Source: Gemmatimonadaceae bacterium (GTDB lineage: Bacteria; Gemmatimonadota; Gemmatimonadetes; Gemmatimonadales; Gemmatimonadaceae). Taken from it: 64,000 nt of DNA. A program made the position numbers. The stretch covers positions 58,379 through 122,378 of the forward strand of contig JBBDYC010000006.1 of the NCBI GenBank assembly GCA_040901985.1, read 5' to 3'. Of this stretch, positions 45,901-54,900 are shown one piece after another. Every line of letters starts with the position of its first letter. Position 1 is the first letter of the stretch.

Positions 45901-48900
45901 CACCGTGTTGCAGGACTGCCTTGCCTACCTCCGCACCACGCGCGGCAAGCGGATAGACCTCGGCCAGTTGGAGCAGGATCCCGCCGTCTACGACGACCTC
46001 TGCCGCGCCGACAGCGTCGGCGTGTTCCAGGTGGAGAGCCGCGCGCAGATGAACACCCTGCCCCGCCTCAAGCCGCGGAACTTCTACGACCTCGTCGTGC
46101 AGGTCTCGCTGATCCGTCCCGGTCCCATCCAGGGCGATATGGTGAACCCGTACCTGCGACGGCGCGCCGGGCTCGAGCCGGTGACCTACCTCCATCCCTC
46201 GCTCGAGTCCGTGCTCAAGCGCACACTCGGCGTGCCGCTCTTCCAGGAGCAGGGGATGCAGGTGGCCGTCGCCGCGGCGCGCTTCACGCCCGGCGAGGCC
46301 GACACCCTCCGCAAGGCGATGGGCTACAAGCGCACGCGCCGCAAGATGGCCGAGATCGGCCAGAGGATGCTCGACGGAATGAAGGCCAACGGCATCGCCG
46401 ACGATGTCGCCCAGCGGATCTTCCATCAGATCGAGGGCTTTGCCGACTACGGGTTCCCGGAGAGCCACGCGGCGAGCTTCGCGCTGATCGTCTACGCGAG
46501 CGCCTACCTGCGGCACCACTACGCGCCGGAGTTCCTTTGTGCGATGCTCAACGCGCAGCCGATGGGGTTCTACGCGCCGGGCACGTTGATCGAGGACGCG
46601 CGACGGCACGGCGTGCGCGTGGCGCCGGTGAATGTGCGGCGCAGCTCGTGGGACCACACGCTGGAGCCGAGCCCCAGGCCGGGCGCGCCGCCGATCGTGC
46701 GGCTCGGGCTGCGCGCGGTGATTGGGCTCGGCGGCCACTCGCGCGAGAGGATTGAGCGCGCGTGCGGGCTGCGCGTGCCCGAGCACGGCGGCAAGGCGCC
46801 GCGTCCCTTCACCTCGATCGCCGACTTCGTGCACCGCACCGGACTCGACCGCCGCGCGCTGCGCGCGCTCGCCGGGGCGGGGGCGTTCGACGTCTTCGTG
46901 CAGGACGAGCCGCCGGCGCGGCGGCGGCGCGCCGCGCTCTGGGGCGTGCTCGTGGCGGAGCGCGAGTCGAGCGCCACGTTGACGCTCCCGCTCTTCCCCG
47001 AGTCGAAGGTGCCCGAGTCCCTCCCCGCCTTTGCACCGGTGGAGCTCACCGAGGCAGACTACCGGCTGACCGGCCTCTCCCTCAACGGGCATCCGCTGAA
47101 GCATCTGCGGCCGCTGCTCGACCCCAACGGCGTCTCGACCGCGCGCGGCCTGCGCCGGCACCGCGACGGCGAGCGGGTGGCACACGCGGGGCTCGTCATC
47201 TGCCGCCAGCGCCCGCAGACGGCGAAGGGGTTCTGCTTCCTCACGCTGGAGGACGAGACGGGGACGGTGAATGTAGTGATCACGCCGGCGCGGTATGAGG
47301 AGCAGGCGCAGCTGATCTCCACCTCACCGCTGTTGCTCGTGCGCGGCGTGCTGCAGGTGGCGCAGGGGGTCTACAACATCCGGGCCAAGGACTTCGTCGC
47401 GATGCGGGCGGGGGCCGGGGAGGAGTCGGTGCGGGGGCACGATTATCGGTGAGGGCACCGCACCTCCCGCTACCCCGCCAGCGCCTGCGGCTCCCGCAGC
47501 CGCTCCTCCCCGCCCCCACCGTCCAGGAAGTGCCCGAAGTGCTCGCGGAACGTTTTCGCGATCACCGGATCGAGGTCCGGCGTGACGGGCAGTTCGCTGT
47601 CGAGCACCACGCCGCCGGCCAGCTCGATCCGCGCCCTGAGCGACGCCAGGTCGTGCCCGTCCTCGCTGAAGTGCGCGAGGTATCCGGCGAGGTGGAACGT
47701 CGTGACCACCGTCGCCCCGCGGAGGCGCGCAATCATCTCGGCCCCCGCCGCGCGGAGGTCCGACCCCTCGTCGAGTATCACCGGTTCGGCGCAGGCCAGA
47801 TGCATCCGGCCGAGCCGGATCCGGCCGCGCCAGACGTCGCCGAGCCACTTGTAGAAGGGCCCGATCCGCAACGGTGCCTTGGGCAACCCCGCAAGCTCGC
47901 GCGCGAAGACCGATTCCTCGGGGATGCGGTCGTAGGTGATCGCGATCGGGAAGAGTGCCGACGGGCGCCCGCTCTCTTGGAGGCAACGCATCAGTCCGCG
48001 CTTGGGCGAGAGGAAGGCGCGCGAGCGGCTCCGCTGCCCCTCGATGAAGAACTCGATCACCTCGCCGCGGTCCACCAACGCCTTGACGCGGCGCGAGAGG
48101 TCACGGTTCTCGCGCGACGCCCCGCGCTCCACGTAGAACGCGTGGACGAGCCCGAGGAGCCGCCCGAGGATCGGCAGCCGCCCGAACTCCGCCGCCGCGG
48201 CGATCTGCGGCACGCGGATCCCAAGGTCGGGACGCGCAAAGGCGAGCACCGAGCAGAGGACGAAGTCGAAGAAGCTCCGGTGCGACGGCAGGAGCGCGAT
48301 GGACGCGCCCTCCGGCACCGCGAGCCGCGCCCGCTCGAACGACGGCACGTCCACCGTCACGCGGTCGGCCACGCGGCGCAGCACCTTGATGGACAGCCAG
48401 CAGGCGAAGCGCACGAACAGGTTGCCCGAGGGTTGCGTCGCCGCCCAGCGCCAGTCGCTGATCTGCGGCGCGCTGGTGCGGCCGGCGAGCACCCACTCGC
48501 GGTCGTCCTGGTCGAAGACGTGGCGGGAGATGCCGCGGCAGACGGTGGACACGAGTTCCAGCGGCCGGAAGCGATCATCCAGCGGCACCGACGTCGCGAA
48601 GTCGAACGTCCGACTCGTGAAGTACGGGAAGGCGTCGTTGAGATAGGCGAGGCGCGAGGCCAGCTTCTTGCCCTGCCGCCGGCGGCCCGCCGAGAAGAGT
48701 CCGGCAAGGACCATCGGCACCCGGTGATGGACGAAGTCCGCCATCACATACCGGGCGCCGGCGGGACCGAGGTAGCCGCGGAGCGGCCAGCGGTCAATCG
48801 GCTGCAGCCGGAAATGCCGCTCGATCTCCGCCCAGCAGTCGTGCACCGTCGCCGCACGCGCGGCGCCGGACACCGCGTGCTGCACCGTCACGTTGTCCGA

Positions 48901-51900: not shown

Positions 51901-54900
51901 TCCAAGTCTGGTCTCCATCACCGGGACGAGGACCACCGTGGGGATCAGGACGGGGAGGCACACGAGGGCGTTGTTTCCGTTCGCCTCGAAAAAGCCGTGG
52001 CGGGTGATCCCCTTGGGGTCCCGGTGATGCTCGCGGAACGGGAGCACGAACCCCGGCCCGACGAAGGGCGTCTCGGGCGTGCCAAAGTTGTCGGCGAGGA
52101 AGTGCACCACGCCGGAGAGCAGGTCCGCCGCGAGGTAGGCCGCAATCGCCACGACGACGAAGAGCCAGACCGGCATCGGATTGACCTGGATGGCGCGCCA
52201 GACCATCGCGGCGAGGACGCCCATCAGGCCGAAATAGGCCAGATAGCCGACGAGCTGCAACCGACTGTGGAAGGCGGTCCGGGGCCCAGGGGCCGTGTGC
52301 GCGAGCTCGGCGAGGGTGTCCACAAATTCGATTCTATAGAGCCGTGGCCCGTCGCGCTACAGCCGCACCGGGGTCCGGGTCGGGGTTTCTCCCCGGTGCG
52401 GCGAGGCCCTCCCCCGCTTGCCGGGAGGAGAACAGGGAGCGAACCTTGCTCTATCCTCCCGGGGGTCAGTTCAACGATGGCGGCGACAAACGTTTCAGAT
52501 CCACGGTACTACCACAAAGTCGTAGACTGTCAGTGGGCCTGTCCGGCCCACACGAACGTCCCCGGCTACCTGCGCCTCATCGCGCAGGGCCGGTACGACG
52601 ACTCGTATATGCTCAATCGCGAGTCCAACGTCTTCCCGGGGATTCTCGGCCGCACCTGCGACCGTCCCTGCGAGCCGGCTTGCCGGCGTGTGCGCGTGGA
52701 GGAGAAGCCGGTCGCGATCTGCCGGCTCAAGCGCGTCGCCGCCGACCTCCGCGGCGATATCCGCAACCGACTCCCCAAGGCGCCCAAGCGGAAGAACGGG
52801 AAGCGGATCGCCTGCGTCGGCGCCGGCCCCGCCTCGCTGACCATCGCCAACGACCTCCTCCCGCTCGGTTACGACGTCACGATCTTCGACCGCAATCCGC
52901 AGCCCGGCGGGTTGATGCGAATCAACATCCCCGCGTTTCGGCTGCCCGCCGAGGTGCTCGACGAGGAGTGCGCCTACATCATCGAGATGGGCGCGACGAT
53001 GAAGTACAACACGCCGATTGACAGCATGAAGGCGCTGCTTGCCGAAGGATACGACGCGATCTTCGTCGGGAGCGGCGCCCCCAAGGGGAAGGAGCTCGAC
53101 ATCCCCGGCCGCTGGGACGCGCCCGACCAGGTGCACATCGGCATCGAGTGGCTCGCCAACATCCACTTCGGCCACGTCGAGACGATCGAGCCGCGCGTCC
53201 TGATCATCGGCGTCGGCAACACGGCAATGGACTGCTGCCGCACCGCCAAGCGCGTCGGCGCCACCGACGTGAAGGTCATCGCGCGCCGCGGCCGCAAGCA
53301 CTTCAAGGCCTCGCCCTGGGAACTCGAGGACGCCGAGGAGGAGCTGGTCGAGATCATCGAGAACCACGCGCCCAAGCGGTTCATCGTCGAGGACGGGAAG
53401 GTCAAGGGAATGGAGTTCGAGGTCCTCGACTGGACCGAGGACGCCAAGGGGAAGCAGCGGAGCACGGTGCTCCGCACCGCGATCATCCCCTGTGACGCGG
53501 TGATCCTCGCGATTGGCCAGGACAATGCCTTCCCGTGGATCGAACGCGACATCGGGATCGAGTTCGGCGAGTGGGATATGCCGGTGGTGGACCGCCAGAC
53601 CTTCCAGAGTTCGCTTCCCGGCGTCTACTTTGGTGGCGACGCCGCGTGGGGGCCGGAGAACATCATCTGGGCGGTGGCGCACGGGCACGAGGCGGCGATC
53701 TCGATCCACGCCCAGTGCGAGCAGCGCTCCATCACCGCGCGGCCGCCGCACGGGATGACGCTCGTCAGCGCGAAGGTCGGGATGCACAGCTGGGGCTACG
53801 ACAACGACTACGAGACGGCGCGCCGCGCCAAGATGACCCACGAGGAGCTCACCAAGCGCTTCAGCGACATCGGCGTGGAGGTCGAGCTCGGCTTCACGCC
53901 CGAACAGACCGCCGCCGAGGTGCAGCGCTGCCTCAACTGCGACATCCAGACGCACTTCACCGACGCGCTCTGCATCGAATGCGACGCCTGCGTGGACGTC
54001 TGCCCGACGAGTTGCCTCACCATCACCACCAACAGCACGCCGCTGGAAGAGCTCCGCACGCGTCTCACCGCACCGGCAACGAACCTCAAGCAGGAGATCT
54101 ACGTCTCCGGCGCGCTCCCGCAGACCAAGCGGGTGATGGTGAAGGACGAGGACGTCTGCCTGCACTGCGGCCTCTGCGCCGAGCGCTGTCCGACCGCGGC
54201 GTGGGATATGCGGACCTTTGACCTCAAGCTTCCCTATGCCGGTCGCGAGCAGGTGACCCGATGAGCCGCGTCAACGACTTCGCGTTCAAGATGGGGACGG
54301 TGAACGGCACCGGCTCCGCCAGCGCCAACGCCCTGCTGATGCAGGCGATCTTCCGGATGGGAATCCCCGTCACCGGGAAGAACCTCTTCCCATCGAACAT
54401 CCAGGGGCTGCCGACCTGGTACGAGATCCGCGTCAGCAAGGACGGGTACACGGCGCGTCCATCGGCCGTGGATCTCGTCGTCGCGCTCAATCCGGCGACC
54501 TATGCGAAGGACGTCGCGAGCGTGCGTCCGGGCGGCTACCTCCTCTACGACTCGTCGTGGCCGATCGACCCCGACCTCGTGCGCGAGGGGATCACGATCC
54601 TCGGCGTGCCGTTCGGCGCGATGTGCGTCGAGGCGTTCGACACCGACCGTGACCGGACTCTCCTGCGCAATATCACGTACGTGGGCGCCTTGGCGGCCTT
54701 GCTGAGCATTGATATGGACGTCGTCGAGGCGATGCTCACCGAGAAGTTCGGGAAAAAGAAGCGGCTCCTCGACGCCAACCACACCGCCATCAAGCTCGGC
54801 TACGACTTCGCCAAGAAGGAGTTCAAGTGCCCGCTGCCGTTCCATCTCAAGAAGATGGAGGCCACCGGCGATCACGTCCTGATGGATGGCAACACCGCCT

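Follow-up and report, generated by a model that had tools for sequence, protein, structure and literature searches.

The window analysed here, a 64,000-nt stretch of a Gemmatimonadaceae genome, carries on its minus strand three contiguous genes, carF, agps, and farat, which probably form one transcription unit and give this aerobic bacterium an O2-dependent, 'peroxisome-type' pathway for glycerophospholipids with ether and vinyl-ether bonds. The initial annotation had named the products as a CarF/PEDS1-type desaturase, an alkylglycerone-phosphate synthase (AGPS), and a fusion of a fatty-acyl reductase (FAR) with an acyltransferase, all encoded in one operon, and had predicted aerobic vinyl-ether synthesis from them. 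Pfam profiles, matches to proteins of solved structure, and the gene arrangement support these assignments. As to the predicted synthesis, the enzyme families, the operon, and the gene order held up, but the accompanying claim on the known distribution of CarF did not survive comparison with sections of PMC13012113 (discussed below).

In the direction of transcription, carF (51568-52323, minus strand; 251 aa, GTG start) is the first gene. It is followed, after a 46-nt spacer (51522-51567), by agps (49752-51521, minus strand; 589 aa, ATG at 51521) and farat (47470-49755, minus strand; 761 aa, ATG start), and the start codon of farat and the TGA of agps share the tetranucleotide ATGA, a 4-nt overlap. 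The three genes are real and look intact, and re-reading of the sequence reproduced both the abutting minus-strand ORFs and the gene spacings of the initial annotation. For agps, ATGs at 51593 and 51626 are upstream alternatives, but matches to AGPS of relatives begin at residues 1-27 of the 589-aa form, which favours the ATG at 51521. The GC content of the operon (0.68-0.70; GC3 0.90-0.92) equals that of the flanking genes and of the genome (0.693). A gltD-like gene (ATG at 52477) is divergent from carF, and the 153 nt between them (52324-52476) presumably constitute the promoter region. This intergenic region contains no match to the sigma-70 consensus, and the 46-nt spacer between carF and agps no terminator-like site; neither a promoter nor a terminator was identified for the operon. 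The string TATAGAAT lies 9 nt 5' of the carF GTG. The arrangement supports the prediction that carF, agps, and farat are co-transcribed as one operon.

The predicted alkyl-DHAP synthase (EC 2.5.1.26) encoded by agps contains both FAD domains of these enzymes (FAD_binding_4, 6e-36; FAD-oxidase_C, 3e-37; Pfam). Its similarity to the solved guinea-pig AGPS 4bby extends over the full length (E 1.1e-160, residues 15-585, i.e., 571 residues), compared with 2e-30 for the best-matching flavoenzyme other than AGPS. R352, Y510, and H547-549 occupy the columns of R419, Y578, and H615-617 in 4bby, which we take to be the active-site Arg, Tyr, and His-His-His loop, and are invariant in 18 AGPS of Gemmatimonadaceae.

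FARAT combines, in a single polypeptide, a reductase domain (NAD_binding_4, Pfam E 5.5e-54; aa 11-276, 48928-49725, minus strand; positions 391-656 of a 1141-aa ORF, minus 380) with a following Acyltransferase domain (PF01553, 3.4e-15; aa 480-606, 47938-48318, minus strand), and is predicted to be a fatty acyl-CoA/ACP reductase fused to a DHAP/G3P-type acyltransferase. FAR proteins carry the motifs GxxGxxG and YxxxK, and acyltransferases of this kind HX4D and EGxRS. These catalytic motifs are kept: YxxxK lines up in the N-terminal match to the solved FAR 7eoz (1.9e-21), HX4D (H492-D497) and EGxRSR line up in the C-terminal matches to the GPATs 9vuq and 8e4y, and 18 relatives show no variation at G13, G16, G19, K20, Y197, K201, H492, D497, E572, G573, R575, and S576. 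The architecture of reductase followed by acyltransferase is common to all of the at least 120 FARAT homologues among the matches listed. That the acyl acceptor would be DHAP rather than G3P is suggested by a single observation, the obligate adjacency of agps (16 of 16 genomes). The pair might instead serve a fatty-alcohol, wax-ester, or other FAD-oxidase reaction and resemble the plasmalogen enzymes at the family level only. Database names would agree with this, as NCBI calls FARAT relatives just 'SDR family oxidoreductase', and the NCBIfam matches of AGPS are GlcD-type oxidases, every one far under its cut-off. Such a function is nevertheless extremely unlikely in view of the difference in E-values given above, the conserved AGPS-specific HHH loop and Tyr, and the fusion of FAR to a GPAT-like domain with intact HX4D, an architecture that has no wax role and would yield exactly both substrates of AGPS.

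CarF, the predicted PEDS1/CarF-type plasmanylethanolamine delta-1'-desaturase, is encoded by the only PF10520 gene of the genome. It matches this family (Lipid_desat; Pfam E 1.2e-51) over profile positions 1-173 of 175, and its hydrophobic stretches (22-42, 44-77, and 116-162) fit four transmembrane helices with all motif His outside. The initial annotation rightly stated that the essential residues of PEDS1 are all present: H74, D78, F96, H99, H100, H109, H162, H166, H189, H192, and H193 agree in spacing with the mouse PEDS1 list (H96, D100, F118, H121, H122, H131, H187, H191, H215, H218, and H219; passages of PMC8960569), a correspondence that reflects motif spacing rather than a sequence alignment. 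They comprise the eight essential His (mouse H96, 121, 122, 187, 191, 215, 218, and 219), the Asp and Phe supporting the di-iron His (mouse D100 and F118; here D78 and F96), and the ninth His (mouse H131, M. xanthus H113), by which PEDS1/CarF can be told apart from FAD4-like proteins. This ninth His is H109, located 10 residues after H99 as H131 is after H121. According to passages of PMC9131029, H113 is essential in M. xanthus, and Arg is usual at this site in plants. Across 17 aligned relatives the eight His, D78, and F96 are invariant, and the H109 column is variable, with N in two of the 17 rows. His occupies the ninth-His column in the window CarF and in seven of the eight other operon-linked proteins, and R, T, K, or N in 11 other PF10520 proteins of Gemmatimonadaceae. 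The sole NCBIfam match of CarF, NF045946 (PlasmethDesatCarF), scores 177.4 bits against an equivalog cut-off of 500, so that the NCBI rule would not call it an equivalog; this cut-off is an annotation threshold for close relatives and not a biochemical criterion.

PF10520 occurs in 21 of 401 Gemmatimonadaceae genomes, the same count as obtained initially. An agps-farat pair is present in 16 of the 401 sampled family genomes, always with agps directly upstream of farat, and nine of these 16 have no PF10520 gene. The collinear order carF-agps-farat was found at eight of the best 80 CarF loci among GTDB species genomes, all of them Gemmatimonadota, which is in line with the initial whole-collection neighbour counts (13 and 22 of about 199,900 genomes); at three more loci (two Spirochaetota, one Nitriliruptoria) carF is convergent to agps-far. 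When AGPS and FARAT are concatenated, the tree unites the carF-linked Gemmatimonadota operons in one clade (11 rows, SH-aLRT 99). This clade lies within a set of unlinked agps-farat pairs, and its sister consists of the pairs of two genomes of the window's genus, G334 and G367. In the CarF tree, the operon-linked proteins group in one clade with the unlinked G334 protein (support 96/93). The two trees, both built without eukaryotic sequences, agree, and the three genes thus share a history and have been inherited together. We read agps-farat as the older, always-adjacent core in the Gemmatimonadaceae, upstream of which carF, already located elsewhere in the genomes of relatives, would have been recruited once. 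The closest relative operon (L044; 73-75% identical) consists of exactly these three genes and lies between Big_2 and MatE genes unrelated to it, and the three-gene form is thus maintained across species.

This distribution also bears on the substrate of CarF. The operon could make only saturated alkyl (plasmanyl) or neutral ether lipids, with CarF desaturating another lipid, for example an acyl chain (FAD4-like) or a different ether or diol lipid, and no true plasmalogen would then be formed. CarF proteins of Rubrobacteraceae are 50-58% identical to the window CarF, and a search of two Rubrobacter genomes (R. marinus and R. taiwanensis) yielded neither AGPS (E<=1e-30) nor FARAT, only FAR-HAD fusions. 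CarF proteins of this neighbourhood can therefore act in a pathway that is not fed by AGPS, and the nine family genomes with agps-farat and no PF10520 gene imply conversely that the core works without CarF. The score below the equivalog cut-off and the replacement of the ninth His by N in some clade members point in the same direction. However, the window CarF has H109 along with the complete set of essential residues, and its orthologue WYBP01000008.1_380 is classed as PANTHER TMEM189, not as FAD4-like, in a dataset of PMC13012113. Moreover, carF is joined to agps-farat in eight other species belonging to one clade, an argument for a substrate supplied by that pathway. We thus consider a plasmanyl-only product unlikely and retain plasmenylethanolamine as the probable one.

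In the proposed pathway, the NAD(P)H-dependent reductase of FARAT would convert an acyl thioester to a fatty alcohol and its GPAT-like acyltransferase would form 1-acyl-DHAP, making FARAT the source of both AGPS substrates. The flavoenzyme AGPS would then swap the acyl group for the fatty alcohol, and a ketoreductase encoded outside the operon would reduce the resulting 1-O-alkyl-DHAP to 1-O-alkyl-G3P. Housekeeping functions, namely a PlsC-type acyltransferase, CdsA, and pssA/psd (a pair on contig C5), could complete plasmanylethanolamine. Into this lipid CarF, as a di-iron membrane desaturase, would insert the 1'-cis double bond at the expense of O2, giving plasmenylethanolamine (plasmalogen). 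We infer from sequence every enzymatic activity in this scheme, the accumulation of its end product, and the identity of the ketoreductase and of the electron donor of CarF; a lipid measurement for the source organism or any Gemmatimonadota was not found in the literature searched. The genome encodes the downstream phosphatidylethanolamine pathway (psd adjoining a CDP-alcohol phosphatidyltransferase; psd/pssA), three more PF01553 acyltransferases beside FARAT, a single strong FAR, and COX1 of a haem-copper oxidase. The source organism is a soil-type Gemmatimonadota bacterium whose genome encodes no photosynthetic reaction centre.

Neither the operon nor the genome contains a dedicated alkyl-DHAP reductase gene. 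An epimerase-family extended SDR follows farat on the same strand within 4 kb in eight of the 16 family genomes with agps-farat, and an adh_short SDR takes this place at loci L045, L046, and L058. In the 99.97%-complete genome of the window organism, tblastn gave no match to the epimerase-family SDR at 1e-10, and none adjoins the operon, which accordingly is not of the M. xanthus agps-farat-NAD type; several generic adh_short SDRs are present (best adh_short match, 37% identical). The operon might thus be the remnant of a four-gene cluster in an incomplete or silent pathway, where alkyl-DHAP would be poorly converted for want of a reductase and ether lipids would be trace or absent. The small genome (2.64 Mb vs. 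3-5 Mb in most relatives) would fit such a loss, and fungi provide a precedent for the genes without the lipid (sections of PMC13012113). Yet the three ORFs are intact, with conserved catalytic residues and native codon usage, L044 likewise has exactly three genes, and generic SDRs are at hand, so that we regard a defunct pathway as very unlikely and a working one, with its ketoreductase encoded elsewhere, as probable.

The closest described parallel lies in M. xanthus, where MXAN_1676 (AGPS), MXAN_1675 (FAR+AT), and MXAN_1674 (NAD epimerase-family) form an operon and carF is unlinked (passages of PMC9131029 and PMC13012113). The enzyme families, the order of agps and farat, and the essential His pattern of CarF including the ninth His are the same, and the third, epimerase-family gene recurs in many Gemmatimonadaceae relatives. 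In contrast, the window has carF joined upstream of agps-farat and no epimerase-family gene, and its genome offers no evidence of an elbA-E cluster and one strong FAR domain only. With the peroxisomal pathway of mammals and protists (FAR1, GNPAT, AGPS, and PEDS1/TMEM189) it shares a full-length AGPS (E 1e-160 to the guinea-pig enzyme), the essential PEDS1 residues, and, as in protist FARAT (sections of PMC13012113), the fusion of FAR and GNPAT functions, but it is a bacterial operon, has no peroxisome targeting, and lacks a PexRAP-type reductase alongside. PlsA-PlsR of Clostridium perfringens leads to vinyl-ether lipids as well, but these enzymes are unrelated and convert esters reductively without O2 (sections of PMC13012113), whereas the window genes belong to aerobic families.

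The initial annotation had further held that bacterial reports of true CarF were limited to Leptospira and a single suborder of myxobacteria. This was the view of 2019-2022 (passages of PMC9131029) and is not supported by sections of PMC13012113 (PNAS 2026), in which all four enzymes are reported from six phyla (73 bacterial genomes: 61 Myxococcota, the remaining 12 spread over five further phyla); the claim to novelty was thus overstated. The supplements of that study, which had been flagged as possibly listing Gemmatimonadota homologues, do so: Datasets S1, S5, and S4 contain WYBP01000008.1_380 (PEDS1), _381 (AGPS), and _382 (760-aa FAR+acyltransferase), consecutive genes of a Gemmatimonadaceae genome. 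In its main text 'Gemmatimon' does not occur and 'operon' appears just for M. xanthus and in references, and within the literature searched the carF-agps-farat linkage is therefore undescribed in print. The operon was already tabulated, unremarked, in the 2026 data tables, where the three proteins are listed separately, and its physical linkage is the undescribed part. The tabulated locus (L049) is 57-60% identical to the window operon, agrees with it in the three genes, their order, and their orientation, and belongs to the same clade in both trees, but its farat is followed, after 4 nt, by a fourth gene of the epimerase family.

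The three minus-strand genes carF, agps and farat lie at the place assigned to them in the initial annotation (47470–52323); genes and arrangement alike are confirmed as real. All three encode proteins with strong Pfam domains. The gene for CarF, a PEDS1/CarF-type plasmanylethanolamine desaturase, occupies 51568–52323 (Lipid_desat PF10520, 1.2e-51). The alkyl-DHAP synthase AGPS has its longest open reading frame (ORF) at 49752–51689 (FAD_binding_4 and FAD-oxidase_C), and FARAT, a fusion of a fatty acyl-CoA reductase (FAR) with a GNPAT-type acyltransferase, at 47470–50895 (NAD_binding_4 and Acyltransferase). 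GC in the window is near 0.68 and shadow ORFs are numerous. The realistic start of agps is the ATG at 51521, which gives a protein of 589 aa beginning 46 nt past the carF TGA and is supported by the AGPS matches of relatives, as these start at residues 1–27 of the 589-aa form. For farat, the realistic start is the ATG at 49755 (761 aa), in an ATGA overlap with the agps stop. The error-prone polymerase gene dnaE2 (43526–47452, plus strand), preceded by an imuB-like gene in a cassette spanning 42277–47452 (plus strand), is convergent with farat; the two stops are 17 nt apart and no hairpin terminator was found between them. A promoter scan of the operon yielded no promoter-like site, and a terminator scan gave one terminator-like site, inside farat, which is fewer than in shuffles. 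The string TATAGAAT is located at 52324–52340 (minus strand), 9 nt before the GTG start of carF; together with the lack of any Shine-Dalgarno-like sequence ahead of this GTG, it hints that the carF transcript may be leaderless or near-leaderless.

Judged from sequence, the operon most likely functions in the O2-dependent synthesis of ether and vinyl-ether phospholipids; in this scheme, both the reductase step and the lipid product are predictions. CarF of the window contains 13 histidines, and in an alignment with 17 relatives eight histidines as well as D78 and F96 are invariant. By spacing, window positions 74, 99, 100, 162, 166, 189, 192, and 193 equal positions 96, 121, 122, 187, 191, 215, 218, and 219 of mouse PEDS1, and H109, D78, and F96 equal H131, D100, and F118 (numbering from passages of PMC8960569). 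The window protein possesses H109, at a column that varies among the relatives and has N in two of the 17 rows. Passages of PMC9131029 describe this ninth histidine as the discriminator of functional CarF/PEDS1 versus plant FAD4 or alphaproteobacterial homologues. H stands in this column in the window's CarF and in seven of the eight other operon-linked proteins, whereas 11 further PF10520 proteins fetched from the same bacterial family carry R, T, K or N. The hydropathy profile, with stretches at 22–42, 44–77, and 116–162, fits a four-helix protein whose motif histidines all lie on the same side. Against NCBIfam, CarF hits a single model, NF045946, an equivalog for plasmanylethanolamine desaturase, with 177 bits versus a cut-off of 500; a sequence search of solved structures with CarF gave no match. 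One caveat for CarF function comes from the Rubrobacteraceae, whose CarF proteins are 50–58% identical to that of the window (L051–L079): Rubrobacter marinus and R. taiwanensis possess CarF without AGPS (E<=1e-30) and also lack FARAT, with FAR domains occurring instead in FAR-Sterile-HAD proteins, as fusions with HAD hydrolases (Rubrobacter loci L131:937–2976 and L132:1480–3498).

AGPS of the window matches the guinea-pig enzyme (4bby) across residues 15–585 with an E of 1.1e-160, compared to 2e-30 for the best non-AGPS flavoenzyme. The active-site residues R419, Y578, and H615–617 of the guinea-pig enzyme align with R352, Y510, and H547–549 in the window protein, and these columns are invariant in 18 family sequences. 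The N-terminal part of FARAT aligns with the solved fatty acyl-CoA reductase 7eoz, YxxxK included, and the C-terminal part with PlsB-type and mitochondrial GPATs (9vuq, 8e4y), including HX4D and EGxRSR; all three motifs are invariant in 18 sequences. A predicted complex of AGPS and the acyltransferase half of FARAT (aa 400–761) scored zero, which bears neither way on binding.

The genome to which the window belongs (2.64 Mb, 19 contigs, 99.97% complete) contains one PF10520 gene, one strong FAR domain, three PF01553 acyltransferases besides farat, and a psd gene adjoining a CDP-alcohol phosphatidyltransferase gene on contig C5. It encodes haem-copper oxidase subunit I, and no photosynthetic reaction centre was found. 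Nor was a dedicated gene for the conversion of alkyl-DHAP to alkyl-G3P identified in this genome. In relatives, this step has natural candidates in two types of short-chain-dehydrogenase-type (SDR) proteins, which might act as acyl/alkyl-DHAP reductase. An epimerase-family extended SDR starts 4 nt past farat at locus L049 (L049:12727–13791, plus strand), whose operon is 57–60% identical to that of the window, and likewise at L050. Seven more family genomes have epimerase-family homologues of 44–55% identity at a distance of at most 4 kb on the same strand; beyond L049 and L050, loci L149, L151, and L153–L157 carry this type after or near farat. The same type, represented by MXAN_1674, is shared by Myxococcus xanthus and the fourth gene of many Gemmatimonadaceae relatives. 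An adh_short SDR follows farat instead at L045:12956–13789, L046:4950–5918, and L058:4735–5574. Neither type adjoins the operon of the window; its genome has no epimerase-family homologue at E 1e-10, and the adh_short type is represented only by generic SDRs of 28–37% identity. The closest relative, L044 (73–75% identical), also has a bare three-gene unit, located between unrelated genes. The question of the bacterial alkyl-DHAP reductase is sharpened by this finding, since relatives offer two SDR candidates and the window's genome neither.

PF10520 had been counted in 21 of 401 genomes of the family, a number that was borne out. FARAT is present in 16 of the 401 genomes, with agps immediately upstream in every case (16/16), and the collinear order carF-agps-farat occurs in four (G000, G243, G068, and G187). 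Two genomes (G334, G375) have a CarF-type gene elsewhere, and nine have agps-farat without a PF10520 match. For this survey, 19 of the 23 foreign PF10520 places in the family sample were fetched, the four left out being contig-end fragments in G013 and G109, as were all 12 remaining FARAT places. G375 has two CarF-type genes on different contigs (L028/L088 and L031/L071) and, on a third contig, a divergent agps-farat pair with 37–39% identity. Across 401 genomes sampled phylum-wide, identity of at least 55% was confined to matches in the window's family (G000, G243, and G068). The 307 genomes from 11 other families gave none at this level, two of these genomes yielding matches of 35–37%. When GTDB was scanned by pattern, with one genome taken per species, 178 relatives emerged, the best 80 of which were compared. 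The collinear operon was found at eight of these 80 loci, corresponding to eight other species (L044–L050 and L058, with L048 cut after agps), all titled Gemmatimonadota, Gemmatimonadaceae or Gemmatimonas; three of the eight are sequence-identical to loci of the family sample. At three of the best 80 loci, carF is convergent to agps and a FAR-only gene (L117, Nitriliruptoria; L118 and L121, Spirochaetota), and at one (L073) an AGPS fragment lies 7 kb from carF. Neither agps nor farat is near carF at 68 loci, within the DNA compared and with some contigs being short. M. xanthus is not among the best 80 of the 178 loci. The CarF proteins of the L117, L118, and L121 metagenome-assembled genomes are nearly identical across phyla (tree branch lengths 0–0.15), which suggests a binning error or a very recent cross-phylum transfer.

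A concatenated AGPS and FARAT tree (25 rows; IQ-TREE quick search, SH-aLRT) united every carF-linked Gemmatimonadota operon in one clade with a support of 99. The clade arises from within the family's unlinked agps-farat pairs; the sister group consists of G334 and G367 from the window's own genus. In a careful CarF tree of 51 rows, the operon-linked CarFs form a group (96/93) that also includes G334's unlinked CarF plus a near relative. Both trees cover bacterial sequences other than M. xanthus CarF, without eukaryotic PEDS1 or FARAT. In the simplest reading, the lineage already possessed carF before a single event joined it to agps-farat. A second Gemmatimonadaceae CarF clade (clade B; 100/99) joins the Rubrobacteraceae weakly (82/74), and the backbone is unresolved. 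FastTree had grouped every Gemmatimonadota and Rubrobacteraceae CarF together (support 96), a result abandoned because the careful tree has no resolved backbone and pairs only clade B with the Rubrobacteraceae; no transfer between Gemmatimonadota and Rubrobacteraceae is claimed.

Among bacteria, aerobic plasmalogen synthesis was long held to be restricted to myxobacteria and a few spirochaetes. According to passages of PMC13012113 (PNAS 2026), 73 bacterial genomes have all four enzymes, 61 of them from Myxococcota and 12 from five other phyla. Its main text makes no mention of Gemmatimonadota, which its SI appendix (Fig. S5) and tree files may name. The initial annotation had raised the possibility that the supplements list homologues from this phylum, and Dataset S1 indeed contains 11 PF10520 proteins from Gemmatimonadota. 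Datasets S1, S5, and S4 list the consecutive proteins WYBP01000008.1_380, _381, and _382 as PEDS1 (PANTHER TMEM189), AGPS, and a 760-aa FAR plus acyltransferase protein, respectively, the PEDS1 being included in the trimmed alignment; this contig is our locus L049. The assembly GCA_011525845 appears in Datasets S1, S4, and S5 and is absent from the GNPAT table S2. Full-text literature searches found no link of Gemmatimonadota to plasmalogen (titles and abstract starts), ether lipid or alkylglycerone; in one Gemmatimonadota-focused paper "ether lipid" occurs in the reference list only. A 2026 sponge-symbiont preprint, in the passages concerned, treats the agps of Poribacteria, Acidobacteriota, and Latescibacterota and not that of Gemmatimonadota. 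The plasmalogen pathway is known, and its occurrence in Gemmatimonadaceae is already in a published table. The present analysis adds the operon structure and its single origin within this family, a core in which agps and farat always adjoin, and a fourth gene that varies.

PMC13012113, in the passages concerned, proposes that an early eukaryote acquired PEDS1 and FARAT by transfer out of Myxococcota, "likely en bloc". The operon demonstrates that desaturase and ether-forming genes can be physically linked, which is the arrangement such a transfer requires. It would be a bold and rather improbable extension that carF-agps-farat forms a minimal, self-sufficient, and transferable cassette, its three genes sufficing to turn a diacyl-lipid bacterium into a plasmalogen producer with the host giving only a generic SDR and the PE pathway, and that this linked cassette, not the dispersed Myxococcus arrangement, was the form of inter-phylum movement and possibly of en bloc entry into an early eukaryote. 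The intact, compact operon from a common soil phylum is a ready cassette for tests of the minimal gene set. It also predicts an unreported lipid class in Gemmatimonadota, which bears on plasmalogen and alkylglycerol signals in soil lipidomes.

A test of GC and GC3 for signs of recent acquisition showed no deviation, both values of the operon being native-like. Among the eight operons, flanks have nothing in common except between near relatives. In the window, 153 nt lie between carF and a divergent operon (52477–57118, plus strand; first ATG at 52477) for a gltD-like Fer4_20/Pyr_redox_2/4Fe-4S protein and the alpha and beta subunits of a 2-oxoacid:ferredoxin oxidoreductase. Downstream of korB lies a gene (57161–59578, plus strand) whose 805-aa product combines the domains DUF5117, DUF5118, and DUF4953 (Met-zincin). 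These ferredoxin-oxidoreductase neighbours were considered as an electron source for CarF and rejected, because this neighbourhood is missing at all four operon-bearing loci compared (L026, L030, L034, and L044). Of 31 same-genus genomes, 17 conserve the gltD-like and korAB genes; elsewhere, these genes do not adjoin the plasmalogen operon, and upstream of them in same-genus genomes neither the operon nor dnaE2 was found. The operon sits at a same-genus synteny break that has no clean boundary, and the genes neighbouring gltD-like/korAB in same-genus genomes map to other contigs of G000.
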